From Macrostomum lignano (Eukaryota), in the NCBI GenBank assembly GCA_002269645.1, contig NIVC01000038.1, positions 1,116,001 through 1,180,000 on the forward strand: a stretch of 64,000 nucleotides of DNA, read 5' to 3'. This document shows, piece by piece, positions 508 through 63,404 of the stretch. Within the stretch, counting starts at the first letter, position 1. Each line of letters starts with the position of its first letter. The position numbers and the translations under genes were made by a program. The notes under the pieces are model-generated. The model worked only from the letters and a program-made list of their open reading frames with translations, did not search any database and was not told where the DNA came from.

Positions 508-570
508 TGTGCTTTTTTGTGTTTAGCATTTTGTGTTTTTAAGGTTTTTGAATAAAAAAATCTTTTTGCA

Positions 571-635
571 CAGCTAAGATTCGAACCCAGGTCGCTGCAT
601 TAGCAGTCCAGTCTGTTCGCATCTATGCTATCTCT
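571..635 (-). mobile_element. tRNA-derived (SINE-like) fragment
   Basis: Minus strand reads GAGATAGCATAGATGCGAACAGACTGGACTGCTAATGCAGCGACCTGGGTTCGAATC. It has a B-box (GGTTCGAATC) and a tRNA-Ser(GCT)-like anticodon arm, but the cloverleaf is degenerate. Confidence 0.55.
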
Positions 636-1009
636 TGTCAATTGGAGTACATGAATTGTGGCCCTTATAATTAAATTCTTATAGCAAATCGGTTAGAGTA
701 AAAAGTTATGACATAATCAATTTCTCAGTCAGCCAGTATCAGTCTCAATTCAAGTTAGCAATATGGTTACGCAATTACAATCAAGTCTTGTGTGCATTTC
801 TTCGGCACTGTTTTGAACTTGTTGTGATGCAATCATTACCACAATCAGAATTCAGCCAGTCAGTTTTTTCTCTAGCATTCTTAAAATGCATTTTAAGTCG
901 AAAATTTTGCTTGACCTTTGCAAAAAAGCATGTTTTTCGAATATTTAATCCCTTTAGCATTTAGCAATTTCTTAGCCAAGATGCATGTACCGTGCCAGGA
1001 AAATTTCTG

Positions 1010-1102
1010 AATGAATGGTGCAAGTTTGAAGAAAATCGGTTGAGCCATTTTTTCCGAAATCTATCGCATACCCACAGACAACTCATTTTTAGTATATAGG
1101 AT
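1010..1102 (+). mobile_element. possible 3' end of a non-autonomous Helitron/Helentron-like (HINE/DINE-like) element
   Basis: AAAATCGGTTGAGCCATTTT ... CATACCCACAGACA ... TTTTTAGTATATAGGAT resembles the stereotyped 3' ends of such elements. Pattern recognition only. Confidence 0.35.
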
Positions 1103-1153
1103 TCGGACCCCTAGAACAGGGGTAGAGAGATAATCCTTCTCTCTGTATGCAAA

Positions 1154-4100
1154 ATGGCTAAACGCAGCGCAGCATCGACCACTTTCCTGGCTGACAAGAG
1201 GCAACGTTTTTATGGTAAGTTTTAATTAATTTCTGACATCAGTCTAGACGGGTTTTGAGTTGCTGCAGCAGGGAGCTTCTATGAATTGACAGGGACAGGA
1301 GCAAGAGGGGCTCGATAGAGAGTTGAAAAGAGCAGGTTAGACAGGCGGGGTTAACAAAGAGTTTAGGGGTTTGTCGCTGTGACAGCTTCAGGAGCATGCG
1401 GGAATTCAGAGTGCTGCGACAGGGGCTTACGAGTTTGAGTAGGGAAGGCGCGCAAACAAATAGCAGGCCGGATAACAGCTGCGGGCGGGGGTTAAAAAAT
1501 TGCAGAGCGTTTCAGCAGCAGGGTCTACGCGCAAGAGGTTATGTGGGAACACAAACAATGAGCCAGACCGGTAAAAAATGGTGGGCGCTCTGACAGCTGC
1601 AGGAGCATGCGGGAATTCAGAGTGCTGCGACAGGGGGCTTACGAGTTTGAGTAGGGAAGACGCGCAAACAAAGAACCAGGCTGGATGCGGGCTGGGGTTA
1701 AAAAATTGCAGACGCGTGTCGGGAGGAGGCATGAGTGCGAGGGGTTATGGGGGAGCGCAAACAAAGAACCAGGCTGGATGCGGCTAGGGTTAAAAAAAAT
1801 TGCAGAGCGTTTCAGCAGCAGGGCTTGTGCGGGAGGGGTAGCGCAAACAATGAGCCAGGCGGGATGCGGCTAGGGTTAAAAAAAATTGCAGAGCGTTTCA
1901 GCAGCAGGGCTTGTGCGGGAGGGGTAGCGCAAACAATGAGCCAGGCAAATGCGGCTGGGGTTAAAAAAATTGCAGACGCGTCTCGGCAGGGGGCATGCGT
2001 GCGAGGGGTTATGGGGGAGCGCTAACAAAGAGCCAGGCGGGATGCGGCTGGGGTTAAAAAAATTGCAGAGCGTGTCGGCGGGAGGGCCTGAGCGCAAGGG
2101 AGGAGCGTGAACAATGAGTCGGTTGGAGTCTGATCCTTGGGGTGCCACGAATTGACAGATTCTTCTGGTTTTTTATCTCCTTGTGTTTTTTCAGACGCGT
2201 TTGTCCCGCCAACACAGCCGGAATCTGTTACCGGACCGGGTGAGTTATCCAGCCCCCCATTCCCTAGACAGACCGGGCTGACTCACACCCCCATTCGTTC
2301 CATGCAGGTTTCACGGCCCGGCTGGATAATCAGCGCGACCTGCCCAAGTTTAGGGCAAAGGGTGTTGAATATGTTGTGAAGTTAGATGACACCGAAGATT
2401 TACGCGAGACATTTGCCAGTATGCTCGATGTCTTTAAGCAAGATTTGGCCGGCGAGGATTTCATGGCTGCGAAATTCGAGAGCGATAACATGCTCAAAGC
2501 GGCTCATACTCCCCCGGTGCGTGCAGCCCGCATGACAGCAGAGTTGTTGTTTAAGCACATTGACAAGATTGTGCAGTCGGATGCAACCGTATTAAGCAAC
2601 AACTTTTCTATCCGACTGCTAAAGGCCTGGGTGCCTCGAGGTGGTTGTGCCCTCGAGAACAAGCATCTAGAAGAGCGGCACGCCTTCTCCCGCCACTATG
2701 TCCGCATCAACAACACGGACAAGAGGTGCCTGCTGCGAGCGCTTGTTGTCGCATGCGCCTACCTGCAATTTGTGGCCAAGCGCATCACCGAGGATGTGTG
2801 GCGCAGGATCAAGACCAATTCGCCCAAGCAGACTAAGCTGGCGACTGAGCTGCAAGTCGAAGCAGGCCTCTACACGGTAAGTTGTGCACTAGTATCAGTA
2901 TCATGGAATACTAAAAGATATATTTTCTGATAAGAATTTTTACGCAGTATCATGGAATACTAAAAGAAATCTTACATAGTACCAGGGAATACTAAAAGAA
3001 TTTTTACACAGTATCATGGAATACTAAAAGATATATTTTCCGATAATATTTTTACATAGTATCAGGGAATACTAAAAGAAATATTTTACCCCCACACAGA
3101 CTCATCAAATCGTCTCGCAGGCTGGTCCTTTCGGGCTGGATGCACTGCCCGAAGCGATCTGTTCCCTGAACCGGCTGCATCCTGGCCACAACTTTGGTGT
3201 ACGCGTGTACCGGGCAGAGGAGGCCAACAGGTGCATCTTCAACCTGCCTGGCACCGAGATTCTGCACCTGCACCTGGTTGAACAGCACTTCAATGTGATC
3301 ACCAAGCTGCCTGCGTTTTTCGGCAGCCACCACTACTGTGCCAAGTGCGAGATGGCCTATGATAGCGACCCCGCCAAGCACAAGTGTGTGGATGCCTGTA
3401 GCACCTGCAAGACTCCGGGCTCTAACTGCAAGGTCAACCGCGCATATGTAAGATGCCAGGATTGCGGGCTAAACTGTTATAATGCTCAGTGCCTAGAGAA
3501 TCACAAGCGCAAGAATAAGGCGGGCAGATCTCGCTGTGATTCAGTCCACGTTTGCGGCACGTGCGGCTATCTAGAAGAACTAAAAGTAGGCCAAGCCCCC
3601 GAGCATCAGTGTGGTTACGCCAAGTGCCCAGTCTGCAAGCAGTACGACGAAACTGCCACCCACGAGTGCTTTGTCACCCCGCCCAAAGCCAAAGAGTCTA
3701 GCGCCCCGTAAGTTTACTATGATTTTGAGACGTACGTGGACTCGGGAAAGCAGCACCGGGTACACTTGGTTACGGCAGCTACCTCCTGCGAGGCGTGTCC
3801 CAAACTCTTCCCCAGGCCCCGCTGCGGCGCGTGCGGGGGACTACACAGCTCAGCCAATTGCATTGCGGGACGCGATTTGGCGCGCGATTTTACGAGCTGT
3901 GTGTCCCACAGCGACTGTGCCTGCGGGATGCGAGAGTTTGTATCCGTCGGGCCGCACTCTATAGACGCTTTTTACTGCTGGTTGACTACACTGTTCAAGC
4001 AGGGAGCTATTGCTATAGCGCACAATGGCTCTGCGTACGATGCATTCCTCCTGCTCGGCGCCCTACTCAATGGCCTGGCCAAGAAGAAGCCGCAGGTGAT

Positions 4101-5061
4101 TTTCCAAAACAGCCGCCTAATGTATATGAAGTGCGACAAGATCGCATTCAAGGACAGCCTCAACTTTATCCCTATTGGTCTGGCGCAATTCCCAAAGGCG
4201 CTTGGTTTGGGCACCCAACTGACCAAGGGAGATTTCCCGCACGTGTTTAATCAGCCAGAAAACTGGGGCTACGTGGGGCCCTACTGCTCAATTGAAATGT
4301 ACGGAGGCAAGAAAAACAAGCAGCACGACTCTATCACAGACTGGCTGGCCAAGCAGGAGGGTCGAGTGTTTGATTTCAATAAGGAGTACCTGGACTATTG
4401 CCTGCAGGACACGCTAATTTTGCGGGAAGGCTGTCTAAAGTACGCCCGCCTGATTAAGGACATTTGCGGACTGGACGCATTTGTTCAATCCAACACCATT
4501 GCGGGCTTGGCTATGGCAGTATTCACCACCAAGTTTATGGAGCCCAACACTCTTGGGGTGATTTCCCGCCGATCGGATGTACAGTCGCACAAGGCGCGGT
4601 GCTGGCTTGCACATTTGAATGCAACCGAGTTTGGCGGCAGGTTGAGGACAGCGGACTCGGGCGGCGAGGCTTTTGCCATGGGTCGTAAGGTGGACGGCTT
4701 CGACTCGGAGACTAGGACGGTGCTGCAGTTTCACGGCTGCTTCTTCCACGGTTGCCCAAAGTGCTTCCCCAATGGCGACGTGCTGCACCCGCTCAAGAAC
4801 CAGCCAATGCGGGCAATTTATGAAGAGACTGAGCGCTTCACTCGCCTGCTCTCTACCGCCTACAATGTGCGTGTCATGTGGGAGCACGACTATCAGGACG
4901 AGGGAGCGCCAGTCCAGCAGCCTATTCGCCTGGAGGATGCCCTGTTTGGCGGACGCACCGAGGCTTTTGTCCCGCACGCCGAGGCCACCGAGACTGTGCA
5001 GCTGCGCTATCGGGATGTGGTAAGTTTGTACACTTTTCAAAGTTTTTTCAAAATTTCTCAT

Positions 5062-5099
<38 letters not shown>

Positions 5100-6517
5100 G
5101 ACTTGTGTTTGAGTTTGGCCTACTTACCCCCCTAGGTGTCGCTCTACCCGACTGTCAACAAGTTTGACAAGTACCCCGTCGGGCATCCGGTTCACCACCC
5201 CGAGCCTCATCTACTGGATGAGCAGCAGCTGGCCCGGTATTTTGGCATCGCCGAGGTGTCAATTCTGCCGCCAACCAATCTCCACATTCCGCTACTGCCC
5301 GCCAAGATTAGCAAGAAGCTAGTTTTCGGCCTCTGCCGCGTCTGCATGGAGACCCAGTGCAGCAGCGAGTGTACACACACTGACGCTGAGAGAATGCTCC
5401 GCGGCACGTGGTCGACCCCAGAGCTCCACAAGGCCCTGCAGTTGGGTTACAAGCTGCAGTCAGTTCATGCCCTGGCCTATTGGACCAAGACTCGGACCGG
5501 GCTGTTTGCAGATTATGTAAACACCTTTTTAAAGCTCAAAGCCGAGTCTAGCGGTTCGCCGGGGATGACTGAGGACGCCAAGGCTGCCTACATGGCCAGC
5601 TTTTTTGAGCGCGAAGGCGTCCGGCTGGAAAAGGTGGAAGAAAATCCTGGCCTGCGCTTTGTTGCCAAGATTTTTCTAAACTCGTAAGTCTGGGTTTGAA
5701 CAGTGGGGACCGTGTTTTTCTACTTACAGTAGTAATACTAAATCTTTTTTTCCCTGCAGGCTCTGGGGCAAATTCTGCCAGCGGGATGACTTGACCTCCA
5801 CAGAGATTGTGGACAGTTACGAGGCGTGGCTGCAGCGCCTGACAGACCCGTCCATCAAAGTCAAGTCGTGCGAGCCAATAGGAGAGTGCTTCATGATGCT
5901 TGAATACAAGCCCCGAATTGGTGTTGCTGGCGAGCGGGCATTCAAGTACGCCAATGTACCTATTGGAGTTTTCACCACCTCCCATGCCCGGCTGCGACTC
6001 TACGAGGCTCTGGAGGGCCTAGGAACCCGCGTGATTTACGCCGATACTGATTCGTAAGTTTTTCACACTGTCTGTCTGTCTGCTTCGCTCCCCTAAACAC
6101 TTTATTCTCCTCCTCCTCCCCAGGGTCGTATACCGGTGCTCTCCGGGCGAGTACGAGCCTCCGGGCGGATCGAGTTTGGGGCAGTGGACTGACGAGGTAC
6201 CTGCCGGCTGCCGCATGGTACAGTTCACCACGGGAGGCCCCAAGCTCTATCGCTATGTGGTGGAGAAGCCCGACGGGTCGCTGTACTCGGTGCTCAAGTG
6301 CAAGAGCATCCGAGTCACGCCCGAGATTTCCGAGCGGGAGGCGGAGCTGCAGGAGATTCTGCGCCACGGCGGGACTGTACGGCTGCCCCAGGCACAGTTC
6401 AGGCGCGACAAGGCCAGCTGTACAATTCGGACCCTGGAGATGGATAAGACATTCCAGCGCGTCATGACTAAGCGAGTGTATGGGTCTGGCAGCCGCCCGT
6501 TTGGCTTTCGGGAGTGA
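1154..6517 (+). CDS. polB: Polinton/Maverick-type protein-primed family B DNA polymerase, 7 exons, with one in-frame TAA at 3709-3711 (this copy may be a pseudogene)
   Basis: Exons 1154-1214, 2195-2239, 2308-2876, 3100-5019, 5136-5683, 5760-6053 and 6124-6517 total 3831 nt (1276 codons plus stop). All six GT-AG junctions are phase-compatible. Motifs: D-x-x-C (NNTDKRCLLRAL) and HFNVI, a Cys/His zinc array, Exo I YYDFET, Exo II AHNGSAYD, Exo III YCLQD, Vsr-like QFHGCFFHGCPKC, LFGGRTE, Pol A RDV/VSLYP, Pol B KIFLNS/LWGKF, Pol C YADTDS/VV, C-terminal KR...PFGF. Confidence 0.93.
1365..2110. repeat. about 87-91 bp G-rich tandem repeat inside pPolB intron 1 (1215-2194)
   Basis: GGGTTAAAAAAATTGCAGAGCG...GCGCAAACAA...GCCAGG...ATGCGGCT recurs at about 1490, 1696, 1787, 1873, 1958 and 2051. 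Confidence 0.9.
2890..3085. repeat. about 39-40 bp tandem repeat (AGTATCATGGAATACTAAAAGA...) filling pPolB intron 3 (2877-3099)
   Basis: About five copies read directly. Confidence 0.9.
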
Positions 6518-6829
6518 TAAGGCCATACGCCTCCCTTGACTGAGATTCCCCTGTCTGTGCGGCACTTGGGATAATAAAACCTATTTGGAAGCTCCCCTGG
6601 GGAGAATTCTCTTTGTATGCGGTCTGCTACCTCCACTGTACATTGGGGCGGTTCTGTTACTCCTCTCTGCCCGCACTGTACTCCGCTAAGGATCCCCCGG
6701 CCCTGGGGAGGAATTGAATTTCTCTATGTTACTCCGCCTGCACTGTACATTGGGATCCCCCGGCCCTGGGGAGGAATGCGGGGGCGTGTCTCTTTACTAG
6801 GAAGCCGGATATTTTACTTTGCACCTATA

Positions 6830-7310
6830 AGCTTAATTTTGCATACATATGTTGTATTATACTTAACTTCCAGTGTGTGTATTTTATCCTATGCATTGAA
6901 ATTTGTGCCTGCGGTTAATATGCAAAATGTAATGTTTAAAATCTGCCTACATTATATGCTATGTAATTTTCCTGTATTATACTCAATTTGCACCTACAGT
7001 GTATGTATGCACCTGCATAATTGAAATCGAGAGTGCGTATGTGTATTTCCACCTATGTTTAATTTTCCTGCAGTATACTTGAATCTGCCTACTACACTAA
7101 TATGTACCCGCTTTGTATTTTGCCTGTTTTACCGTCTGCCAATATAACGATAATATCATTATGTATACCTAAGTTTGTACACCTATATGCATTATGCACC
7201 AATATGTACATTTTAATATGCACCTGCATTATACCTATGCGCCTACCATGTATTTTTTATACTTTTTATGTAAATATACGCAATTTCACCTACTATAAGT
7301 AGTTTTCGTA
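6830..7310. repeat. AT-rich degenerate repeat block, copy A (paralogous to 9290-9835)
   Basis: Shares the 45-bp block ACTTTTTATGTAAATATACGCAATTTCACCTACTATAAGTAGTTTTC (7261-7307) and TGTACCCGCTTTGTATT with the copy at 9290-9835. Confidence 0.8.
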
Positions 7311-7339
7311 ATTTTGTGTGTTAATATCGCTGACTATAC

Positions 7340-7775
7340 GTATCGGTGTACACCTGTATTGGGCGAGTGTACACCTGTATTGGGTGAGTGTACACCTGGC
7401 GCCTGTGGTTGGGAGGGTCTACATATCTGGAGGGTGAGCCTGCGGCTCGGGAGGGTCGCCTCCAGCTGCGCCTGCGGCATACATATCGGTAGGGTGTACT
7501 TATCGGGAGGGTCTACATATCGGGAGGGTCTACATATCGGGAGGGTCTACATATCGGGAGGGCCGCCTGCGGCATACATATCGGGGGAGGGCGCCTGCGG
7601 CATGGGCGCCTGCGGCATGGGCGCCTGCGGCATGGGCGCCTGCGGCATGGGCGCCTGATTGGCGCGCCTGGATGGCGCTTGGCGCCACGCGCCTGCGGCG
7701 CGCGCGCGCCGAGCGCCAGCCAATGAGAGGCGAGGAGGGTTGACACCCACCCCACCTCCAAAAACGCCCGGATAC
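7340..7775. repeat. GC-rich modular repeat A (GTGTACACCT / CATATCGGGAGGG / GGCGCCTGCGGCAT units)
   Basis: Short tandem units, closely similar to 9860-10200 and 12555-12995. Confidence 0.9.
7700..7775 (+). promoter_or_regulatory. CCAAT-box plus GC-box-like module, duplicated at 12925-12995
   Basis: GCGCCAGCCAATGAGAGGCG(A/G)GG(A/T)GGGTTGACACCCACCCCACCTCCAAAAACGCCCGGATA is nearly identical in both copies. Function is inferred from motif resemblance only. Confidence 0.35.
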
Positions 7776-8423
7776 GGGTTCATATAGTAGTGCGGTTGAA
7801 CTTTCGAATTTCCGCCGGCGTTGTGGTCGCACATATAAATCCGGAAGTATCGCAGACGAATCACAACGAAATTCTTTCTCCTTGTTTTACTCCGACTGCC
7901 GGGGTCCTCAAATTCCGGGGGAGGGTAGTCATAATCGTCGTGCGGTCGTACAAATGGTAGACGCCGAAGATTCTGACACCGAAAATTAATTCGTCGATTT
8001 GTTGAGCTGATTACTTCCAGTAGGGTAGAGCTGCCACCACCGTAATTTAAGTATTACGGAACGAATAAGTCACAGAGATTTCTTTGAGATGAGAACTTTG
8101 GTTGTTTTATGCCCCACGGGCAAATAACGATCAAGATAGGCTATGGCTCGGGTTAATTGTTAATGAAGAAGGAATTATTGTCTTGGTGCTGATATTATTA
8201 TTATTATTATTATTAAGAAATCAAAGCAGCAGGCTAAACGTTATTAGGTTACTTATTGACGAAAGAGTTGCGGGTGCCGAGGTACGAGGCTAAGCTTAAA
8301 AGTCAAATGCTAGTCAATAAGTAATGAGCTAGATAATTAACGAGTAGGCAAAATAAATGACGTAAATGAGCGAAGAAAAGTGGAGAAGGAACGAGGAAGC
8401 AGAGCATTGAAGACATTACATGT

Positions 8424-8603
8424 ACATGTACACAAATTTACGCAAATGTACACACACACACACACACACACACACGCACGCACACGCGTATCCTGCAGCG
8501 CATCCTGCAGCGCAGCAAGGCAGGGAGCTCTTGCTGTGAATACGCGTGTGCATGCGTGTGTGTGTGTGTGTGTGTGTACATTTGCGTAAATTTGTGTACA
8601 TGT
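8424..8603. repeat. long inverted repeat / MITE-like foldback (arms 8424-8491 and 8540-8603)
   Basis: ACATGTACACAAATTTACGCAAATGTAC(AC)n...CACACGCGTAT pairs with ATACGCGTGTG...(GT)nACATTTGCGTAAATTTGTGTACATGT. Confidence 0.9.
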
Positions 8604-9289
8604 GGTCCTATATACAGGAAACTGTGTACATTTATGTGTACAATTATGTCTATGCGCTACGTTGTGTGTAGTTCGTTGACCTGCGTTTGTAAATACAGTT
8701 TATACAGTTTAGCCCGTGCACCGCATTGATGCCTACTTTTGTGCTGAGATACCTGCTTTTTATTAAATACGCTGCACCAAAAGCAAATTTTGTTGGTGCA
8801 TACTGTGTTTTTGTAGAGGTGGAGGCATGCTTTTTAATACATATGTCTTTAGTGTAATTGGGTGTGCTTCAACTTGGCTCGCGAATCTTGCACTATGGCT
8901 CTCTAGTGGAAAGTACTCTTACTTGTGCTGGTTGTGGGTGAATGTGGGGCTTTCTGCTTGACTTATTTAGTTTACTTGATGGTTAAATGAGGAGTGGGAG
9001 ATGACGCGCCTACCTCAGGGAGGAATGCAGCTCCGCGGTCTGATGCAGCGCTTTCTGTTACCCCTCTCCATCCGCACTGTACTTGGTCTCCGCTAGGGAT
9101 CTCCCCTTGGGATTAAGAGTGGGCGGGCCCTTTGTACTCGACCCTGGGTTAAAAACTCGCATTTGGAGGCTCTGGAGAGTTGCAGTGGGGTTCAACAAAT
9201 GTCTGATAAGATCTCTTGTGAGGGCGTGATACTCGTCTCGAAATAAAAAAAAACCTGAACAAGTGTTGGATGCCCTTACTAGTTGGCGG

Positions 9290-9835
9290 GTTGTTACCTC
9301 TACAATTGTGCATTATTTCTGTCAATATTTTCCCCTGCATTATGTCAATATGTGCTACAGTGTGTCATAATATGATATTTTTATGCACTAATATGTATCA
9401 TAATTTTCCTGCATTATGCTTGCTTCTGCCTCTACGATGTGTGTATTTTAGCCTATACACCTACATAATTTGAATCTACAGTGTGTGCATATGCACCTGC
9501 ATTATACTTGTATCTACTCTGTTTATGTGTATTTCAACCTATGTTTTACATTATACTAGCATCTGCAAGCGCCTACTCCACTAATAAAGCGATATGTACC
9601 CGCTTTGTATTACGATTTTGTCTATTTCACCTACTTTTCTGTCAATATATCGATAAAATGCATCTATATTGTGTGTTTTTTGTTGCTCATATGCTTAATT
9701 CTATATGTCTGTACACCTATATGCATCGTAATATGCATTATGCACCGATATTTACACCTACTGATATGTTTAATATGCGTTTTGCTTACTTTTTATGTAA
9801 ATATACGCAATTTCACCTACTATAAGTAGTTTTCA
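9290..9835. repeat. AT-rich degenerate repeat block, copy B
   Basis: Paralogous to 6830-7310; the conserved 45-bp block is at about 9788-9834. Confidence 0.8.
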
Positions 9836-9859
9836 CTAGCCTAATTTTGTGTTAATATC

Positions 9860-10200
9860 GTTGGTTACATATCGGTGTACACATACATATCGGGAGAGTG
9901 TACACTCATATTGGGAGAGTGTACACACATATTGAGAGAGTGTACACTCATATCGGGGAGTGTACACACATATTGAGAGAGTGTACCTTCAGTTCGGGAG
10001 GGGGCGCCTGCGGGATACATTTCGGGGGCCCGGACCGCGCTTGGCACCTGTGGCTCGCGCGCCATATGGTAGGGTGTACATGTCGGGTACATGTCGGGAG
10101 GGGCGCCTGCTGCATACATGTCGGTGTACATATCGGGAGGGTGTGCCTGCTGCATACAGGTCGGGAGGGTTGCCTGCGTCATACATGTCGGGGCGCCTGG
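9860..10200. repeat. GC-rich modular repeat B
   Basis: Same CATATCGGGAG / GAGTGTACAC / GGCGCCTGC units as repeats A and C. Confidence 0.85.
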
Positions 10201-11389
10201 ACTGGGCTCGAGTGTTGTACTCTTTGTATGAATGCATTCTTGGTGTGTAACTCCAGACCATCCCTTCCCTCCAGGAGCACTGCAAGTAGACTGGTATGGT
10301 TTGGTATTCGAGGTTGGCGCGTGTACGTAATATACTCTTTGTAATATTTACCTGACCTGGGTTTGTAAGGTTTAATAACATATAAATGACTACTGCTGAC
10401 TAGTTGGCGCATCTGGATGGTGTGATAATAACTAACGTATCGAGATTTCGAGAGAAATCCTAGCATAATACTGTCTGTCCGGCATGTGGAAAAGTATTTG
10501 CCCCACCTTCGCTTACTCATACTGCACACAGACAAAGCTTATCTCTTTTAGTAAACTGTTCGTGGTGGTTTAGAAGGAGACGATGGTCTTCCTGTATATA
10601 CCTCTCTATCCCTTCTTCGCTCGTAATAACTTCATAAATGCTCGCTTGACCAATGGCTGGTACTGAACTAATAATTCATACGATACATAATGCCTAATAC
10701 TTTCTAACTCCGTACAGCTCACAAGTTTCTACTCTCTACTCTATCAGTAACATTAAAATAAAAAAGGTAAAATTTGCTGGTTTTGTGCCTAGTTTACTTA
10801 CTTTTCTATGTAGTTTCTAGCTCGTATGTAGTTTGCTTACTTGAAAATGTCTGCTTTTTATTCAAATTTATGTGGTTTGAAGGTTTATTTTTGCTAAAAT
10901 ACCTGGTTTCTTATAAAAATTTCTACTCTCGACAATGATTGTATCAGCTATTTCATTAAAATAACCTACTTTTTGAATAAAACGTTGTATTTAACCTCCT
11001 AGTTCTTTTTTCAAAACATAATGGAAACCCTCCCTACACCCTGGAACCTCCTCAAGCAGCTTACATAGAGCATGCAGACCCCGAAACCCCCTCTAGTGTG
11101 CCCTGATTTCAGCGGTCTAGCGGTTAACATCTGTATTTTTACACTATATTTTCCTTCATACAGCAATACAGGAGGGTTTGGAAGAGTGAGTCTGGCGGGG
11201 GAGGGGGCTTGTGGGATGATGAGGATGCGTACACACAGTTTAGCCTGTTTTAGCCTACCTTTTGGGCTAATATACTTACTATTATTACTACTAGGTACTA
11301 TGTACATACTATTATACTACCCACTATTAAATATGCTGCACTAAATCCAACTTTTGATAATACATAGCGTGTTTTGGTCGATTCTCCCT

Positions 11390-12420
11390 CACGTCTCTGT
11401 CCCTACACGTGCTCTGCCCGCTTTGGTCTCTGTTTGTGTACCTCTCTGTAACGTCTCTGTACGCTCAGACTGGTTTCTCCGTCCCCGCACGCGCCTCTAC
11501 TAAAGTTTGCTGTTACCTACCCCTACACACTGCTCTCTGTCTCCCTCCGCGCACACCTCACTGCCCTTGCATGCAACTTGCATGCCTTGCATGCCCTGTC
11601 CTGCCCTCGCGTGGGTCCCTGTCTATACATAGCTACTGGACCCTACCTCTCTGTGCCTTGCTCGCAACTCTGTCCCAGGCCCCCTTCACACTTCTCTGTC
11701 CCGGGCTGCAACTGGCTGACACGCGCCTCTCTGTTCCCCAGCCTGCGTGGCTGCCTACCCCTGCACACTGCTCTCTGTCCCCCCTCCTCTCTGCGCCTCT
11801 CTATCATCCTATTCCTGCAGCTGACCGTGCCGTTCAGCTCTGTCCACGCGCGGCTCCACCCCTGCCCGTGTCTCACTGTACACTGCCCCCCCCCCCTGCT
11901 GCATGGCTCCCTTGTGTGGCTCCCTTACCCAGCGCGTTTGCTCCCTATCTCCCTCCTGCTCCATATGTTTCTGTTCCCTCACACTACGCACGCGTGGCCA
12001 GCTCTCTGTCCATACACATCTCTGCTCCTCCACTCTATCCTCGCGTGGTCCCTTGACTGTTCGCATGCCCCTGCATACCCTGCCTGCCTCTCTGTCCCCT
12101 GCACTGGGGAGGGAGCTCTCTATCCTCTGTACGGCTCTCTCTGTGGGGTGTGTGTGACTCACACTACCTCTCTGTCCTAGCATGCGCCTCTCTATCCGGC
12201 TCCTGCAGCAGGCTGTGTTGTTCACATCTCTTTCCACCCACCCTCTGCCCGTACACGCTCACTGTACAGGGCTGCGTCAGCGTCGGGGTTAAAACTTCTC
12301 GCTCCCTATGCTTCAACAGTATAACAACCTAGTGGCTGGCTCTCTGTCCGCCCACCCCTCTGCCCGTACACGCTCACTGTACAGGGCTGCGTCAGCATCG
12401 GGGCTGAAACTTCCTATACC
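11390..12420. repeat. pyrimidine-rich degenerate repeat (CTCTCTGT-rich) ending in a duplicated ~62-bp unit
   Basis: Recurrent CTCTCTGT(C/A)C motifs. CACCCTCTGCCCGTACACGCTCACTGTACAGGGCTGCGTCAGC occurs at about 12239 and 12353. Confidence 0.75.
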
Positions 12421-12554
12421 CAACCGTGTAGTGGCCTAGTATGGGCGCGACCTGAGTTCGATTTCGCTAGTTGAGATGCGGGTGAGAGAGGGGAAGAGGC
12501 TAGGTGGGGGGCAGGGTGTGAGGTATAGGGGGCCTGCGGGGTACGTATCGTTGA

Positions 12555-12995
12555 CTACATATCGGGAGAGTGTACACCTGTATTGGGAGAGTGTACACCT
12601 GTATTGGGAGAGTGTACACCTGTATTGGGAGAGTGTACACCCGTACTGGGGAGAGTGTACCTTTGGCTCGGGAGAGTGTACACTCGGGGCGCCTGCGGCA
12701 TGGGCGTCTGCGGCATGGGGCGCCTGCGGCATGGGCGCCTGCTGCTCTGGAGGGTGGGCATACATATCGGGAGGGTGTACATATCGGGGTACATATCGGG
12801 AGGGTGCGCCTGCGGCATACATATCGGGAGGGTGGGCATACATATCGGGAGGGTGCGCCTGCGGCTGGTCGGCGCTTGGCGCCACGCGCCTGCGGCTGGT
12901 CGGCGTTTGGCGCCACGCGCCTGCGGCGCGCGCGCGCCAGCCAATGAGAGGCGGGGTGGGTTGACACCCACCCCACCTCCAAAAACGCCCGGATA
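12555..12995. repeat. GC-rich modular repeat C
   Basis: Closely parallels 7340-7775, including the terminal CCAAT module. Confidence 0.9.
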
Positions 12996-13208
12996 AATGC
13001 ACGTATAGTAGTCCCGCCTGAACGGACCCTGCAAGGTGAACAGCAGGACGTCCTGAACAGGTTGGGGGCAGTAGAACTCTGCCCGGATCACGTGGCCCCG
13101 CCAGTTGAAGTCGCCGCCGGCGCACGATGGTGGACGGGCTCGCTTATACATTGACAGACGGTTAAAGGACGCTGCTAGCGCCCCTGACCAGGCGGGCGGG
13201 TGTGTCTT

Positions 13209-13850
13209 TTAGGGAACTGTCCCATTGGCGGGCCATCTGACTCCTTCCCCCTTCTGGCCCCTGTATGGTTGGTGGGAGGAGTTCTTTTTTGTAGTTCTTG
13301 TGGTTGGTGGTCCCTTGTGCTGTTCTGTATTCTCGCGAGGCCGAATCTTCCCTGAAAAACTCAACACCCGATGGAAATCAGCAAATTTTCTCACCTTTTC
13401 TTTGGATCGAGTCAATCGCCCCTAAATAAACTTTGATTGCTGCTAGATCCTACAGAATCCCCTAATAAGCACCCACTAAGTGTCCTTTTCTTACCCATCG
13501 TTTGCAACTCTCCAAACACCCACTCAAATTCGAGACTTCCGGATCCCCCGTGACTGCAGCCGCCGCCGTGACCATCCAAGGACTACCGCGCCAAGCAGCC
13601 CTGCCCGTCGGGGCGTCTGTGAAGGTATTTTTTTTCTGTTGCGCTGCCTCTGGATACTGTCAGCCCGGTCTCCCACTATTGCTCACCAAATATAACATAC
13701 CGTCTTAAATTCCGCTCTAAAAATTAACTCAACGTAGAGGCGGACAAAGTCTAGGGAATGAGGCCTGGCGGGGATGAGCGCCAGAAACCAAGGGGTTGCA
13801 TAGGTGATTTCATGCAGCCTAGGTTGCGTCAAATAATTATAATATAGCAT
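13209..13850 (-). CDS. spliced orphan gene, 4 exons, about 169 aa, function unknown
   Basis: Exons 13850-13701 (ATG, 50 codons), 13656-13495 (54 codons), 13449-13395 and 13351-13209 (TAA). Introns are 44, 45 and 43 nt (GTATGT..ACAG, GTAAGA..GTAG, GTGAGA..TCAG), all phase-compatible. The protein begins MLYYNYLTQPRLHEITYATPWFLALIPARPHSLDFVRLYVELIFRAEFKT/YPEAAQQKK. No family recognised. Confidence 0.55.
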
Positions 13851-14108
13851 CTAGTCTTTATTCTTTATCTGCATTCTTTATATTCGAGTTTTCTTCTTCT
13901 ATATTATATCTTCTATCTTCTATCTAAAACAAAAAAATTACGCCAGACTTTATAGTTATTGTATCCCTGTGTTTGAAAACTGTGTCAGTTTTGCATTGAT
14001 TGAAAAAAAATTAATTAAATCTAAGCGAACCTGCATCAGTTGATGATTCATTCTTCACGACACGCTGCAGCCCACCGCAAGCACAACTGACTTGTTACAG
14101 CTTGACCG

Positions 14109-14253
14109 AGGGTCGTTTCACAAACCCTAATTTTCACAACGTCGAAACCAGAACCTTTCATAAGACCTATATTTCAGGTCTTATGAAATTTGGAGCTTAT
14201 GAAAGTTTGTGTCTTGCGAAGTTGTGACATTTAGGGCTTGTGAAAGCGACCCC
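14109..14253. mobile_element. 145-bp MITE with TIRs and 7-bp TSD
   Basis: Left end AGGGTCGTTTCACAAACCCTAA versus right end TTAGGGCTTGTGAAAGCGACCCC. Flanked on both sides by TTGACCG. Internal palindrome TTCATAAGACCT...AGGTCTTATGAA. Confidence 0.85.
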
Positions 14254-14583
14254 TTGACCGTATGGACTGTGTAGCGCCTTGTCCCCCACTGTCCCTGCAT
14301 TTAATAAAAGTACTTTCTTTTGAGTGCTCACTAGCTAGGTTGTCTATGGCTCAAACTCCAACTTTCGGTTTCAGCCCCAGACTAACTGTACTTTATTTTT
14401 ATTAAATAGACGCGATCGCCCCCCAGTCGATTGAACTAAATTGAACCAGCCGCTCAACTTAATCAATAATCTTCATCTTTTGGTAGCCAGCGCTAAAACT
14501 GCATTACTAAAACAGCTGCTGGAGCCACTCTACTTTGTGGTGTGACCACATATGTTGTAAATTACTGCCTTGAAAAACGCGTG

Positions 14584-20330: not shown

Positions 20331-20457
20331 TATTTATGAGCAATAGTAATTTAACGTAATTATTGTAATATAAATGCTGTTAACCAGTTTTTAAAAAACT
20401 CTCTAACACTTATTTGCAGATCCTTACCTGTCAATCAGCAGCATTAAAGCCTCTTCC

Positions 20458-23400
20458 ATGGCGGACAAACTTAAACGTTTACAGCGCGCCGCAAAACAAG
20501 TATCTACTTTAAAAAGGACCGTGACTGTTTGGGGAATAGACTTTGATGCAATTGAAAAAGATCCAAGCAAGAGACTGTATCTGCGTGCAAATCAATGCCA
20601 ATTCAGTGACGTCAGTAAAATTTTAACTGCTGAAAGTGCAACTCTGCAGCTGCTACGTGACGACAATCGCAGAACAGCCGCTCATTATGCAGCCATGAAC
20701 AAGTTTGGAGAAGCTGCACTCGCTGAACTCATCGAGAGATTCGGACCAGGCTGCCTCACAAGTCCTGACGTTGACGAAATCACTCCGTTGCATCTGTCAG
20801 CGCGCTATCACTCAGCTAAGTCTTGGGAACAGAACTTCAAAGCTGTAAAAAAGGTCAACATGTTTAGGTTGAAAGACGCTAACGGAGACACCTGCGCTCA
20901 CTGGGCTGCTCAAAATTCTCAAGACTGCCAAATGATGCTTACAGTGACGAGAATAGCTTCTAAAGCTTGCTTGAAATGGAGAAACAATAGAAATGCAACA
21001 GTGTTGCACCATGTACTTCAGTATTGCACCGAAGAAGTTATTGAGAAGATTGTGCATGGAATAGGCAATTCAAAGGACATTCTTGGCGGAGAAGATATTG
21101 ATGGCAATACCATGGGTCATTTTGCTGCTAAAAACAAAGTCGATGCCATTAAGTTTGTGTCACGAATGAAGACTTCATCACAAAGCGAAATTCATTGGTT
21201 AAAGCCTACAAACAAGCTGGGAGAAACGGTTCCACACTTGGCTCTTCGGCACAACAACGAGAAAGTAGCAACCGAACTTATTGAACTCTTATTAAAAAAA
21301 TCGCTGCCAAATTGGTATAAATTGAAAGACAAGCAGGGCAACACATGTCTGCATGCGATCGCTCAACGCCCAAAAAGAGATGCACTGCTTCTGAAAGCTG
21401 TTGAAGCCGCCATTGAACAGAGTCAGAGTCCACCGACTGAACTCGACTGTCTCATGGATGAGAACAAGCACAAATCCACAGTTCTTCATTACGCTGTTGA
21501 AAATTGCAGCTTGGAAACTGTTCGAGTGCTGCTTACTAAGATAAAAGAAGGCCAAAACCTTCAGACTGCCAACAAAGAGGGCAACACAATCTTCCACATT
21601 GCTGCACAGAGAACAGATAAAAGTGAATTATTGGAGACACTGTTCTCTCGTGAAGAAGTTGATATGAAGGAAGCTTTAAGCAAACTAAATAACAAAAATC
21701 AATCGGTGCTTCACCTGGCAATCGACGTGATGGACAATTTTCAGAAACTAAACATTACGAACATTATCGAAGAGATGACAACGGATGAGCTCTGCCGCAC
21801 CGACATAGGAGGAAACACTTTGCTACATTCGCTGATGCAGAGCAAATTAACATATGATGGCTTCGAGCAGCACCTTTTGAATCGATTCAAGCTACTCGTC
21901 GAGAAGGGAGTAGATGTGGAAGCCACCAACAATCTCAGTTTGAACTGCCTGCACGCAACAAAGCTTGATGCTCTGGTGCTCTGGAAGCTGCTAGATAAAG
22001 TTCATTCGGACGAAACTGCCAGGAGTCACTTCGATAAACTTTTGGTAAATTCAAAGACTGGCGCTCACATAATTCACACATTTTCAGGTCAGTACAAACT
22101 AAAGAATTTGATGTTGGAAAGTATTGAAACTTTATCGAAGAGTCCTCCAAATAGCCTGCTTAAAAAAAAAGTCAAGCTACAATCTTGCGAAAACTCGCAG
22201 CACGGAGAGACCTGCTTGCACTTTGCCTGCGCTTACGGGCATCAGGAAAATATAATTTTCCTGCTTGAAAATGGCTTGAGCCTTTGGAGCGAATCGCATT
22301 CAGGGCAGACATGCGTTGACCATGCCTTTGAAAGCGGAAACTTATACGATCTCCTTCAAGCTGTCCAGGAAGACAAAAAGAACCAGAATAACGTTCCAAG
22401 CTCTGATACATTTACCTCTCAGAAAGAAATCAAAATGACGGACATATGGCGCCTTCTGGATCCGCCGAAAAGAGCGCTTAAACTTCCCAACAGGTCAGCG
22501 GCGAGAATGACTCTGGTGTCTATAACCAATGACTATAGTACAAAGCAGCAAAAAACGGACAAGATAGTTCTGATCAAAGCGCTAGAAATGGACTCCAGAA
22601 AGCTGTTTCGCGCGGCACTCAGCCTAAACATCATCACGAGAGAAACTGAGAGACAATTTACGCAGTATTTTATTGACACAGTAACGGAAGACGAAGAAAT
22701 CCAGCGAGCTTTTTCCAGACAGAACACGTTCAAGCACCTGACTCATGTGGATCCCAATTCTGAGTTGGCGCTTCTAGACTTGGCCACATTCTTTCATCGT
22801 GATGAGATCCTGCCTGATCTGATTCTGACTCGACAGTTCGAGCTTATTCCGTGCTGCCTCAGCTTGCTCATCCAGCTGGACCCCGAGATCATCAAGATGA
22901 GAGCCAAGGCAAAGGGCAAGCATGAGCAGCTGCTTCAACTAAAAAGCAAGATCACGAACATTGCAGTGAACGCACTCAATGAGCTGTTTGTTAACGCTGA
23001 CAGCATCGAGTTCGAGCTGCTGTTCAAGTACATTAAAGGTGAAATGAAGCATTTTACTTTAGATAGCAAAGCAGCAGCAAAGAAGGAAAATCGCGACTGT
23101 TTGGGACCGAAGTTTCCGTACCGAGTCTTTAAAGACGGGAATCCAGAGAAAATTAAGTATAAAAGCATACTTGATCTGGTGAAAATAGCTGACAACCCGG
23201 ATCTGTTTGCCACGGACTGCATCTATTCAGTCACCAAAGAGGAGTGGAGGCAGCCCATTTCAAACTGCTCAAAGCGAGGTTCATCCGGAAACTGCTGTCT
23301 TCCGTGCGACTGCTGCCCCAGCGCTTGCAGCTGCAGGCCAAAAATTTCGAGACCGGATTCTCCACTGGCAAGGTTTTGGACCCACTTTGTCGCATTCATA

Positions 23401-25041
23401 TGTTTCCTCGTATTCTTTGGTTGGTACGTTATTAATTTCGAGGACAGTTTCTTAAAACCACAGTTTGACGCTCTTCTTTTTGCCTATCTTTTTTCCTTTG
23501 GCTTGCAAGAACTGAGTGAAATCTGGAGACAACGAAAAGCTAGAGAGAACTGCAAGATCGGTTCTCACGTACGATCTGTTCCCGCCTACATTGTTGATGG
23601 GCTCAATATTTTCGATGCTCTGGCGATTCTGTTTCTGCTGGCCGGCCTTTCTACAAGATGGCTATATTATGGGATGGGCTTTCATCTACAAGATGCTTAT
23701 TCCAGTCAAGTTGTCCTGTGCGTGTCGTACTCACTGTTCTGCTTTCGATCCGTCTCGTTCCTGAGCTACTTTGAGACCGTTGGGCCAATGATTAACATGC
23801 TTTGGAATCTAATTGTTTACGACTTGTTGCCTTTCTTGGTGGTCTTGTTCGTGATTTTCAGCTGCTTTGGAGTATTCTTTGTGTGTCTGCTGTTTTCGGA
23901 CGTCTGGACTCCGACAGAAGGACTCGCTACTCTAAGCAACGGATGGGAAACGTTTGTTCAAGCTGCCACGATACCTCTGAACTTGCTGTTCGGCAACTTC
24001 GATCAGATCGAGTTGAGCTACTCTCCAGATAGCACGAAGCTAGGAAAGGTCGCCATTAAGCAAGGCTATGAATGGTTTAACTATTTAATAATATTCTTAT
24101 TCATGGGCCTGGTGAATGTTGTGATGATGAACTTGCTGATTGCACTGTTCAATTTGCGAGTCACACAGATTTATGGCGTGGCGATCGGCGTCTGGAGAAA
24201 GCGGTTCGTCCAGATGTTGCAGGAGTACCGGCAGTCGACTCTACTTCCGCCGCCATTGAGTTTTCTGGAGTACATTTTTAAATTTGTTTTGTTCATAGTC
24301 AGTCGATGCTCTAAAAAGTTTTGCACGAAAAATGCTGTCGAAGATGAAAATATCGCAAGTGCTGATGACGTAAGTGACTTTTCGAAATCTCTTTGTTGCA
24401 GCTCATTTATTTGTATTGGAGTCTTCATTATAAAATCGGATGAAACTGAATGCTGATTTTAGACCACAATAATTCGATTTTACATGTAGCTGTTTTTCCT
24501 ATGAATATTCATGGGGGTATACGTGCTAGTTTTAATCACGTCTATACTATTTCGAAAATTCTCTTTTGCATTTCAGAAAACCATCCTTTGGTGGCTAAAA
24601 GACAAGAAGGACTACCCCGAAGAGTACAATCGGTTCCTGAAGTTCCAGGCGACACAGTTCCGCCGGTGCCGGTCCCGCCTGCTGCGCGACACCCAGTGGA
24701 ACAGAAACGACTTTGACGTGGTGAAGGCGCACACGGGAAAGGAACTGTCGGAGTTAAAAATGGATTTGCAGGAGATGCTGGACGATGCGAATATTCAAGG
24801 CCAATTAGGAAAGGTAAGCTATCACAGGCACGATTCGCTGCACCAGGAGACAAAGGTATTTGAAGAAAATGTGTCTGCGGGACCGAATCTGACTCCGAAA
24901 AAGAAGCAGGAGACCAACAGCGGTCAGACGGTGTTTACAGAGCTGAAGCGACAGGAGCAGCGAATTGTAAGCATTGAATCCAAACTGGACCAGCTTCTGA
25001 AACTTTCTCAGCAGCAGCAAAAAAAATCGACAAGAAATTGA
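20458..25041 (+). CDS. ankyrin-repeat TRP cation channel, about 1458 aa, 2 coding exons
   Basis: Exons 20458-24369 and 24577-25041 (phase-0 intron GTAAGT..TTTCAG). About 15 ankyrin-like TxLH motifs, six TM segments, pore LLFGNFD, S6/TRP helix NLLIALFN...VWRKRF...EY...LPPP, and a C-terminal coiled coil. Confidence 0.9.
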
Positions 25042-36410: not shown

Positions 36411-38377
36411 GTCAGAAGGCTAAACTTCTCTTTAACTCTGTTAAGTTTCCAAAGTTATATTAATTAGTTCCTATAATACTTGTACTTTTACAGATGTTGT
36501 ACTTCTGGTAGCATATATATATCTACTAGTAGTGCATGTATTAATTTACTGGTAGCATATTTACATGTATTATACTTTTGGCCTAAGTAGTCTTATGGCA
36601 CTGTCTAATTCCCATCTATACTCTACATGTAAGTTTTTTTATACTCAGTCCTGGGCATTCCCAGGATCAGAGGGTCACAGCTTACTCACTGGGTATTCTG
36701 TCCTAAGGTGGGTTCTTCAAGCTCTGAGTTTGGATTACTCTATCCTATGGTAGAATTTCTGCCTTCTAAAGGCAATCTCAAAGTGCAATGACACACTTGG
36801 TGGCTCAACCCAGTACTTTGGGAGCTTTTAAATGCCTATATTATACTAGTCTTCAACTTAGTATTTGTAACAACTGGTTTACCAAGGATGCCTATGTAGT
36901 CAATGTAGCAATGAATAGGTCTCCCATGACTGTTATGTCCTTTGCTGATCCCAGATAGTGCCTTTATCCACTTCTTTATCAAATGGTACCATTTTGGCTT
37001 TTGGGATGCTTTAGACTTATTAGGATGCTTCCATTGCATGCTTTGAGCTTTGATCTTTAGCTTATATAACATTCACTATCATAATAGTCAAGAAACTCCT
37101 CTTGGCAGTTTGTATATCATTTTCTGTCTATGGTAACAACTAAGATCAATTTGAAAGAAGCCTTATGTAGAAAATTTAAGTATTGTCATAATTTTTAGGG
37201 CATATGCAAAACATTGGGTCCGCTAGTTGTTTAGGCCTTTAAAATCAAAATCAAATGTACAATTTTGAAATGTGCCAGAAAAATTGACACTGATTGTTGA
37301 AATGGGCAAAGGCGCATGTGGTTGACCTTTAGCTTGATGAACTATGTAGGTACCTACTGATTCCTTGATTGACATTATACCAGTAGGGCCCACATGCTTA
37401 ATGCACACTGTCAATGTACTAGCGTCAATGGACAGGGCTTTGGACATAGTTCTAAAGTTGGTGTCTCTCCTAATCCTTGAGTCTCATTCTACACTTTCTG
37501 GGTTCTTGTGACCAGTGCTGGAATGTCAAGAATCTCTTCTGACTCAATCTTGTCTGCCAATTCCTTACTCAATTCCTCCAAATACTGGCTGTTTGACTCC
37601 ACTGAAATCCAGGCTAGCTCTTTGATTGACATACCAAATAGAACTTCTCCAGGCAAATTTGAATAATTGATTAATTGATTGATCTTTTTTGAAGTGTGGT
37701 AAGACCATGCTAACAAATTAAAATTTATCCTGACATTATTTTTCCTTTTACAGTGAATCTAGGCCCATAAATACCTATGCCTATATGTCTATGGTCCTAA
37801 ATTGACAAATGAGGAGAAAGAATGGCCATAGACACTTAAAACTTCTTGTATGTTACAACAGAGCCTGGAATTTTTTACATTAATGTCATTTTCTCACATG
37901 ACAATGTAATGCTGTTTATAGCAAAAATAAATGTTAATGTTAAAGTGACAGGACTTTTTATTGCCTTTGTACTTTTTAATTATGATGAAACACTACTAGT
38001 TAAATTAAGTTCTGTTTGTTTGAGCATCAACAATAGATCTATAAGTAAAGTATACTGATATACTGATTATGAACTGAATTACAACATGAACTTTTATTTA
38101 AAGATTTTTTGTATCTCAAAACTTAGAGTTTGTAACTATTAACTAGATATAATAAATCCTGAGAAAATTTTTAGAACAAATTTTAGTTTTTGTTTTGGTT
38201 AATTTTTTAGGAGTAGCCTATGTAAGTGTCGAATCCTGTGTTTGAATGTCTTAAATGAACAGATATGCACGGGCATTTATAATGCAATGACAAAAAGGCT
38301 CCAGTGTGATCAATGTACTGACTATCATCAACCCTTTCGCAGCCAGCTCTCACCTCACAATTCATCTCCAAGTCACC

Positions 38378-56997: not shown

Positions 56998-57599
56998 CTG
57001 GGCTGAGGAACTGAGGAACTGCTGACTCGGAGCATTGTCAGTGTTTGCTCAGAAAGTGGAGCGGCACCCTTGACAACTATTCAAGTTCGGAAAACTTCAG
57101 TAGCTTCATAAAGTTTATTCCTTATTCGATGGAAATCTAAAGAAACTCAATCATCATGTCTAAACATCAAATTTAACCTTCTTTAGAGAAACTGTTTTCT
57201 TTTCTTTTAAAGAACCTATCATAAGTTTTTACTTTTAAAAAGCAAATAAAAAGAACTAAATCATTTATTTTTTTGCTTTCGAAGCATGATGGGCTGGAAA
57301 TTACAGACCAGTGATTGTTAAGTGACAAAGCTGCATTGTGTGTGCTGAATTGCTTGTTTATTTTTTTAGCTAATAACATAATTTGAACTCAAAACTGTAC
57401 AAAATTTGAATTTGAAAATTGTGACTTTCAATAAGATTACGAGCTTAAACTTAACGAGCTATAATGAACAAAAGTTTATGACGGACGCATTCGCCTAAAA
57501 AGGCACTAGCTAGAGAAGCGATCGCTTACAAAGGACTAGACGGATTTGCATTTTACTTGTATTCTACTCGCAGTAGTTTAACTCTTAGATTCAACGAGC

Positions 57600-63346: not shown

Positions 63347-63404
63347 CTGCGCGAGGCAGTTGAGGATGGGATCGGGAATCTTTTGAGATAACTGCCAAAA
63401 AACG

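Follow-up and report, generated by a model that had tools for sequence, protein, structure and literature searches.

A stretch of 64,000 nucleotides from Macrostomum lignano (GCA_002269645.1, contig NIVC01000038.1, positions 1,116,001-1,180,000 of the forward strand; hereafter the window, to which all coordinates refer) contains a Polinton/Maverick-type polymerase gene, pPolB, and raises the question whether this gene belongs to a complete minimal element or to the remains of a larger one. A preliminary description had proposed that 1102-13925 is a complete unit of about 12.8 kb, devoid of capsid and integrase genes, with two inward-facing spliced genes, pPolB on the left and an orphan gene on the right. 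The explanation that we favor, with some confidence, is that the window copy is a defective member of a multi-copy Macrostomum family of Polinton/Maverick type, cut or interrupted just upstream of the polymerase gene, and that intact copies carry a spliced pPolB and a PC4-like gene head to head, with a repeat-rich non-coding region 3' of pPolB. What is new here is a multi-copy Polinton-type family with pPolB introns common to both of its subfamilies; a minimal unit of 12.8 kb is unsupported.

pPolB occupies 1154-6517 on the plus strand (PF03175, E 2e-18 and 2e-13) and comprises seven exons and six GT-AG introns, with a frame of 1276 codons that contains one in-frame stop. Its ATG at 1154 lies 52 bp after position 1102, so that a spliced pPolB indeed starts about 50 bp past the proposed left junction, as had been described. 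All six introns have GT(A/G)AGT donors and pyrimidine-rich acceptors (scores 4.7-11.5) and keep the frame, while the exons have codon scores of 1.8-22.8 under a rough model, in which one of seven training pieces was out of frame and pPolB itself was among the training pieces. Exon 1 (1154-1214) begins with the ATG, and its end is matched at 11 of 14 residues in P0079, another gene model of the same polymerase; intron 1 (1215-2194, 980 nt) holds an 86-bp minisatellite, and mini- or microsatellites are contained in introns 1, 3, and 4. Exon 2 (2195-2239) is followed by exon 3 (2308-2876), which, judging from the structure model of the near-identical P0055, encodes a terminal-protein-like alpha/beta domain and the start of a vOTU domain with a Cys at the catalytic position. 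Exon 4 (3100-5019) encodes the end of the vOTU domain (His), a Cys-rich region, Exo I-III, a VSR-like insert (about 4560-4910, named by motif likeness) and the first half of motif A; exon 5 (5136-5683) extends from the second half of motif A to the first half of motif B, exon 6 (5760-6053) from the second half of motif B to motif C, and exon 7 (6124-6517) encodes the thumb region and ends with the stop codon. Introns 4, 5, and 6 interrupt polymerase motifs A, B, and C, and an active enzyme is therefore impossible without splicing. These introns are the more notable feature of the locus, although the preliminary description made no point of them.

The same polymerase is represented by 52 gene models, of which 51 are labelled M. 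lignano and one is unlabelled; they were pooled from two homologue searches (13 of 51 and 39 of 47 hits). In a tree of the exonuclease region, for which 34 models were long enough and to which 12 outside sequences were added, the family models form one clade (support 0.96) with two subfamilies, and the best outside relative is 40% identical in this region. By overall identity, 41 models group with the window and 11 fall into the second subfamily at about 50-64%, whereas the nearest relatives outside Macrostomum, polymerases of fish, Nymphon and nematodes, are ~30% identical. P0053 and P0055 are ~100% identical to the window, and its exon sequence is 85-100% identical to that of other copies. 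The context of the other copies was read, as a proxy, from ab initio protein models running into the flanks, each of which shows one strand and a few kb only. The host contexts seen in this way include an ADAM gene, a synapsin and a C2H2 zinc-finger gene, with a G protein-coupled receptor (GPCR) gene as the neighbor in the window, and the differences between these contexts point to dispersal of the element copies.

The same models bear on the age of the introns. They leave pPolB exactly at the end of exon 4 in 19/40 cases in subfamily 1 and 2/6 in subfamily 2, and enter it exactly at the start of exon 7 in 3/24 and 4/5 cases, respectively, compared with 0/45, 0/35, 0/37, and 3/46 for four control motifs. 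Since these jumps at exon edges recur in both subfamilies, at least introns 4 and 6 appear to be older than the subfamily split.

The in-frame stop of the window copy, which the preliminary description had overlooked, is located at 3709-3711 (codon 429 of 1276, plus strand), directly before Exo I, and via the main splice path this copy cannot yield a full polymerase. A residue is present at this site, between the same flanks, in 33 of the 52 models. The predictions for P0053 and P0055 splice around the site and lose Exo I, and because neither reads through, a one-off read error at the stop is unlikely. In the stretch 3707-3820 (plus strand), the stop codon also falls within a perfect splice-donor motif, the one used in the P0053 and P0055 predictions.

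The assignment to the Polintons can be examined at the level of domains. P0055 is identical to window exon 3 at 189/189 residues, and its structure model (predicted local distance difference test, pLDDT, 75) has an N-terminal alpha/beta domain at residues 2-106; residues 13-110 match a Y-family polymerase accessory domain (Pol eta residues 315-431) with Z 5.8 and a root-mean-square deviation (rmsd) of 3.5 over 95 aligned residues, which is weak and within the background range, although a match of this kind is to be expected of a PRD1-like terminal-protein domain (LF/PAD fold). An OTU fold follows at residues 125-258 (Z 9.6, rmsd 3.9, 124 aligned), with OTU folds scoring Z 8-9.6 over 115-260, and the vOTU residues C140 and H252 are at least 90% conserved among 35 sequences. 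For the polymerase core the best fold match is phi29 polymerase (Z 10.4). Modelled in this way, the polymerase of the family follows the order terminal protein (TP)-vOTU-Exo-Palm given for Polinton polymerases in the available part of PMC11161782. A single-sequence fold of exon 3 was of low confidence (pLDDT 56) and was not used. The VSR-like insert has a conserved His-Gly-Cys motif that aligns in relatives, the segment is missing from the folded model, and a PDB sequence search with it gave no match, so that the assignment to VSR is one of motif likeness only. About 30 of the 52 models break where this segment starts, and in many of them identical predicted splice sites remove it without loss of frame, which may be a prediction artefact or may indicate an optional nuclease segment.

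That the element is larger than the proposed unit is indicated by the sequence upstream of pPolB in other copies. An upstream non-polymerase part of at least 30 residues is present in 25/52 models, 18 of them in the subfamily of the window, while 27/52 have no upstream flank. Fourteen models have one upstream stretch in common, which reaches 325 residues and is 97-100% identical in most cases. Its far part recurs in a fifteenth model, and P0079 joins the stretch to the end of pPolB exon 1; in the window it has no match. Read on the opposite strand, it aligns to the PC4-bearing part of P0011 with a score of 134 (100 shuffles: 29 ± 4, maximum 41), whereas the best six-frame score of that comparison in window 1-15 kb is 79, in the microsatellite region of intron 4. 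The Pfam match of P0011 to PC4 (E 2e-4) is below the cut-off; the N-terminus of P0078 is the same PC4-like protein in sense orientation, and for its Atlas model a eukaryotic PC4 cluster, in which nematodes are commonest, was matched (template modelling score, TM, 0.75). When proteins of 382-1217 residues were searched for homologues of the PC4-like region, only the query itself and no further neighbors were returned. Altogether, the PC4-like gene region stands beside pPolB in 16 of the 18 informative models of the same subfamily, and in P0011 of the other subfamily; the two exceptions splice directly from host exons. As far as predicted proteins can tell, other copies carry pPolB and a putative PC4-like gene for a single-stranded DNA-binding protein (SSB) next to each other on opposite strands, that is, head to head.

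Because other copies share this upstream stretch, the element extends to the left of pPolB, and because the PC4-like region is absent from the window, the copy there has probably been cut or interrupted on its left. The left boundary at 1102 is hence not shared by these 16 copies, and the true left end of the element probably lies outside the window. A caveat of the preliminary description, that missing genes might lie left of the window, has become the likelier case given the upstream PC4-like gene. Two further observations concern the arrangement of copies. In P0011 and P0078 the order and orientation of the polymerase and PC4-like pieces imply neighboring copies in inverted orientation (tail-to-tail, head-to-head), which could be concatemer-like arrays or artefacts of long-read assembly. 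In the second subfamily, two further upstream stretches are shared, one between P0088 (71-120) and P0011 (1156-1201), the other among P0003, P0005, P0006, and P0072 (1-78).

At the left junction itself, position 1102 looks like the edge of a separate AT-rich repeat (512-1101, minus strand) that ends 52 bp from the pPolB ATG. Read on the minus strand, the repeat opens with TC behind an A (A|TC at 1102/1101), as the 5' end of a Helitron would; its other end lies to the left of position 1. A minisatellite of 23 bp in 22 copies (1-511), which continues past the window edge, probably belongs to the left-hand repeat rather than to the pPolB element. The left-hand repeat has no match among phage records; a stretch resembling a tRNA B-box lies inside it (555-610, minus strand), where neither ARAGORN nor Rfam called one, ARAGORN having called no tRNA and Rfam having given sub-threshold microsatellite matches only in 1-20 kb. 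Two adjacent small hairpins lie between the junction and the ATG (1107-1144, plus strand; z -2.4, equalled by 1 of 200 shuffles), and one of them is built of AG/CT dinucleotide runs and resembles a Polinton end motif.

If the window copy is a damaged member of such a family, an intact copy would presumably be transcribed in the nucleus by host RNA polymerase II, and removal of the six introns would give the active polymerase. Its N-terminal TP domain would prime replication at the element ends, the vOTU protease would release that domain, and the PC4-like protein would coat the strand displaced during strand-displacement replication. New copies would then insert into the host genome by means of an integrase, the gene of which may lie past the PC4-like gene, or which may be provided in trans. 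The copy in the window would have been severed from its left arm, probably when a Helitron-like element inserted 52 bp before the ATG.

Several points weigh against this explanation. In none of the copies did a terminal inverted repeat (TIR), target-site duplication (TSD), integrase or capsid come to light, and membership in the Polintons is therefore carried by the polymerase. The context evidence comes wholly from ab initio protein models rather than from the DNA of other copies; P0053 and P0055, which are closest to the window, carry no flank, and the closest informative model, P0056, is 96.8% identical. For the exon-edge jumps, a fifth control motif, the pattern of which is ambiguous, gave 25/42 'other', and a cruder breakpoint test was marginal (43/552; null mean 10.7, 99th percentile 39, maximum 61). 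According to the parts available of PMC5730564 and PMC10468722, the M. lignano genome is duplicated and an early assembly was rich in errors, so that 52 models overstate the number of distinct loci. As to the interruption, Helitrons begin with 5'-TC and insert at A|T, as stated in the accessible sections of PMC4067079 and PMC4038834. The sequence at 1102/1101 does show 5'-TC after a host A, yet this is a feature of three bases with little statistical weight. The other ground for reading 512-1101 as a Helitron is a putative wider likeness to Lep1-type ends.

The alternative that survives best concerns the family rather than the window copy: all copies may be reduced to pPolB, the PC4-like SSB and perhaps a small orphan gene, without a capsid module or integrase. 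Spread would then occur in trans, or through insertions that a nuclease assists and DNA repair drives, with inverted arrays as a possible form. It is compatible with the explanation given above for the window and differs from it only beyond the PC4-like gene; we consider it possible, if on the unlikely side. The preliminary description had stated that no integrase, A32 ATPase, adenain or capsid gene follows the polymerase, and this is borne out in 1-14.2 kb: 24 six-frame read-through pieces spanning 1-2.2 kb and 6.5-14.2 kb gave no match to these families, their two Pfam matches (E 0.12 and 0.47) both being below the cut-off. Integrase, ATPase, protease and capsid families were likewise without a match in a scan of 24 selected longer open reading frames (ORFs) elsewhere in the window, and such Pfam domains occur in 0/52 models, on the sense strand and over a few kb each. 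In P0004 (ADAM|pPolB|ADAM) and P0070 (zinc finger|pPolB|zinc finger), pPolB lies between host exons, and its strand shows nothing else, and P0011 and P0078 imply inverted neighboring copies within one gene model. Loss of the capsid module has a precedent, in that nine Polintons have lost MCP, protease and ATPase together (PMC4028283, as far as available), these genes being optional among Polintons, and a gain of introns would suit a nuclear life outside a virion. On the other side, genes on the opposite strand would escape Pfam, because the models read one strand only and cover a few kb, the left arm of the element is not in the window, 27/52 models lack an upstream flank, and the inverted neighbors could be assembly artefacts. 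In its most explicit form, which we regard as doubtful, this would be an old, recently amplified, fully nuclear family with a six-intron TP-vOTU-pPolB and a PC4-like SSB, no capsid module or integrase, and a non-rve route of spread; such routes may be a helper integrase acting in trans, or the insertion of protein-primed products with the aid of the VSR nuclease, at times in inverted arrays. If true, such a capsid- and integrase-less nuclear family would represent a derivative of animal Polintons that lives neither as a virus nor as an integrase transposon.

The complete invertron-like unit of the preliminary description finds no support in its proposed ends either. The candidate right end, a 7-bp reiteration of 19 nt (AGATAGA) at 13907-13925 on the minus strand, is present as described, and so is the orphan ATG 75 bp inside it, but it has no left counterpart and no TSD, and short reiterations of a similar kind that contain AG are found at other places in the window, 57003 and 33426 among them. 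The first 50 nt of the two proposed ends match at 12/50 positions; the best inverted match of 520-1250 against 6.5-20 kb scores 12, within the 10-16 of 30 control pieces; 6-mer repeats flanking 1102/13925 number 2 against ~4 expected by chance; and in a self-comparison of the window no inverted pair joins the two ends. The check for a TIR and a 6-bp TSD at 1102/13925 therefore gave nothing above chance. A MITE-like (miniature inverted-repeat transposable element) imperfect palindrome of 150 bp (14105-14254, z -10) lies 180 bp to the right of the proposed end.

The DNA between pPolB and this end is dominated by repeats, with no coding signal comparable to the pPolB exons in 6.5-13.0 kb. Repeat module A (6640-7800, plus strand) is non-coding and consists of an AT-rich part, GC-rich mini-repeats and a CCAAT-containing end; module B (9050-10208, plus strand) is 65% identical to it over 825 columns and module C (12540-13012, plus strand) 72% over ~510 columns. 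The three are mutually diverged at 65-73% identity, and 6.5-13.0 kb also holds low-complexity DNA and a 180-bp palindrome (8424-8603, 82% identity inverted, z -9) bounded by a CA/TG microsatellite. Open frames of 119-168 codons overlap module ends at 7550-8053 and 9868-10538 (both minus strand); they match nothing in Pfam or PHROG and lack a coding signal. The claim that the DNA 3' of pPolB belongs to the element holds in part: P0009 splices the last pPolB exon to 15 residues identical to module C (12676-12720; 33.5 bits, at most 24.3 in six control pieces), and module C is hence probably part of the element, though this is 1 model of 52, while 13020-13200 (minus strand) is a 3' remnant of a non-LTR (long terminal repeat) retrotransposon ORF (long interspersed nuclear element, LINE). 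This remnant matches the stretch after RVT_1 near the C-terminus of P0008 (64% over 22 residues, E 7e-6) and has the best coding score in 6.5-14 kb. A likeness, by eye, of the P0056 and P0079 flanks to the repeat module proved not significant.

The second gene of the proposed unit, the orphan candidate (13209-13850, minus strand), has as its best model four exons (13850-13701, 13647-13495, 13449-13395, 13351-13209) with 166 codons and introns of 53, 45, and 43 nt. Its three donors are decent (3.6-5.3) and 0/300 shuffles have a spliced ORF as long. Its acceptors are weak (-6.1 to -0.9), with a threshold that was chosen after the candidate had been seen, exon 1 has a codon score of -4.7, and the same loose rule, applied to real non-coding pieces, yields 154 codons in 4/48 of them. 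No match was found in Pfam or among 98 stored proteins, and a single PHROG match is to an unknown family (E 0.048). A phmmer search of a frame from the region against 1.84 billion representatives gave 0 hits, which says little, because that frame contained an alternative last exon only and omitted all four exons of the best model. The orphan gene could be real, although the chances are rather against it, and nothing links it to the pPolB element; a 13-mer common to pPolB intron 2 and its first intron, which would favor a single unit, is one of five shared 13-mers where ~1.2 are expected. The complete unit thus has on its side the AG-initial reiteration at 13925, the orphan model, this 13-mer, and the repeat module that follows pPolB in one other copy. 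Against it stand the upstream gene region in 16/18 models, the nonsense codon in the polymerase, the absence of a TIR and TSD, the LINE remnant, and the 52 bp that it leaves for a promoter, and we judge it improbable.

The Helitron-like junction allows yet another arrangement, in which pPolB is cargo, a spliced and formerly domesticated polymerase gene moved by Helitron-like elements that end at the two AT-rich junctions. This would account for A|TC at 1102, a similar low-complexity TC/TAT/A-run at 13900-13935 and the hairpins at 1107-1144, and introns are typical of captured host genes, to judge from the Maverick cargo literature in the extracts available. Both junctions would, however, be outward-facing 5' ends, so that pPolB would not be enclosed in one Helitron, and the scanned ORFs gave no Rep-helicase. 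Moreover, pPolB has retained its TP and vOTU domains, with the residues at catalytic positions, and is linked to PC4 in both subfamilies; there is little chance that this arrangement is correct. That the six introns are mere insertions in a decayed, originally intronless gene is very improbable: gene-modelling tools do take insertions in dead Mavericks for introns (PMC8097293, in the part available) and introns 1, 3, and 4 hold mini- or microsatellites, but six GT(A/G)AGT donors with pyrimidine-rich acceptors, a kept frame, exons 85-100% identical to other copies, and the recurrence of positions 4 and 6 in a subfamily at about 60% identity speak for spliceosomal introns.

The defective copy and its family can be compared with several known elements. 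Closest are the Polintons/Mavericks of marine nematodes and molluscs, whose pPolB2 carries a VSR insertion (Jeong et al., 10.1101/2023.08.22.554363); they share with the Macrostomum family the predicted TP-vOTU-Exo-Palm order of the polymerase and an insert, located after the exonuclease and before motif A, that resembles a Cys/His nuclease, whereas the Macrostomum family differs in its six spliceosomal introns and PC4-like neighbor, and in that no TIR, TSD, integrase or capsid was seen. Intact vertebrate Mavericks carry a conserved set of 7-8 ORFs free of introns, their TIRs end in (AG)3 or (AGT)2 and their TSDs measure 6 bp (PMC8097293), and intact Mavericks are reported as intronless (PMC8097293; 10.1101/2022.07.12.499685). 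Dispersed copies, many of them defective (96% in vertebrates), are common to both (PMC8097293), but the intronless ORF set, TIR ends and TSDs were not seen in Macrostomum, where the polymerase gene has six GT-AG introns; an intronless set of core genes is typical of Polintons/Mavericks rather than defining. The capsid-less Polintons are a precedent for a reduced family, although neither integrase loss nor intron gain is reported in the text available (PMC4028283). Introns within Polinton-like elements are also known from dinoflagellates, where introner-containing Maverick-Polinton-like elements mostly acquired young introner insertions after integration (10.1101/2025.03.18.643946), whereas the Macrostomum introns are unrelated in sequence, are common to two diverged subfamilies and occur in an animal host. 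Cytoplasmic linear plasmids of the pGKL type are capsid-less replicons that also have TP-vOTU-pPolB, but they are extrachromosomal and cytoplasmic (PMC11161782), unlike the Macrostomum element, for which spliceosomal introns argue for nuclear transcription.

The literature provided no account of an intron-bearing Macrostomum Polinton family, repeat databases and subscription papers aside, and the sole match for Polinton together with PC4 used PC4 as a cluster label. The accessible text of PMC8502044 contains nothing on splicing, and that of PMC12801592, PMC10468722 and the PMC5730564 supplement (the repeat table of which is possibly not included) does not mention Mavericks or Polintons. The absence of introns that is described for the core genes of Polintons agrees with a virus-like cycle; amplification with six polymerase introns, some of which appear to predate a split at ~60% protein identity, would show long residence in the nucleus and dependence on host splicing. 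The family hence bears on the debated mode of Polinton spread, viral or transposon-like, and on the way in which virion modules are lost. M. lignano is tractable in this respect, as RNA sequencing (RNA-seq), RNA interference (RNAi) and transgenesis exist.

A scan of GTDB yielded a single contig of 2.2 kb, which carries a distant polymerase but offers no context. Its open frame of 726 codons (1-2180 of L001) has the same His-Gly-Cys insert, and the contig, which is binned in a Planctomycetota metagenome-assembled genome, is probably a mis-binned eukaryotic virus-like sequence. The other long ORFs scanned in the window represent genes of host type (GPCRs, ankyrin, TPR, Mab-21, WD40, fibrinogen) and an aspartyl protease. 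The latter is a gag-type match in a GC-rich region (29500-31600, minus strand) and likely a remnant of an LTR retrotransposon. A 1349-codon ankyrin ORF lies at 20407-24456, and 53120-61340 holds a cluster of ankyrin ORFs, an ORF with a Mab-21 C-terminal domain and a 1246-codon TPR ORF; the ankyrin, Mab-21 and TPR ORFs are possibly genes of an innate-immune type. An ORF with LisH and WD40 domains resembling LIS1/PAC1 (38291-39076, plus strand) continues into a 32-bp minisatellite, and two arrays of the same 42-bp minisatellite lie 2 kb apart at 61418-61794 and 63404-63824.

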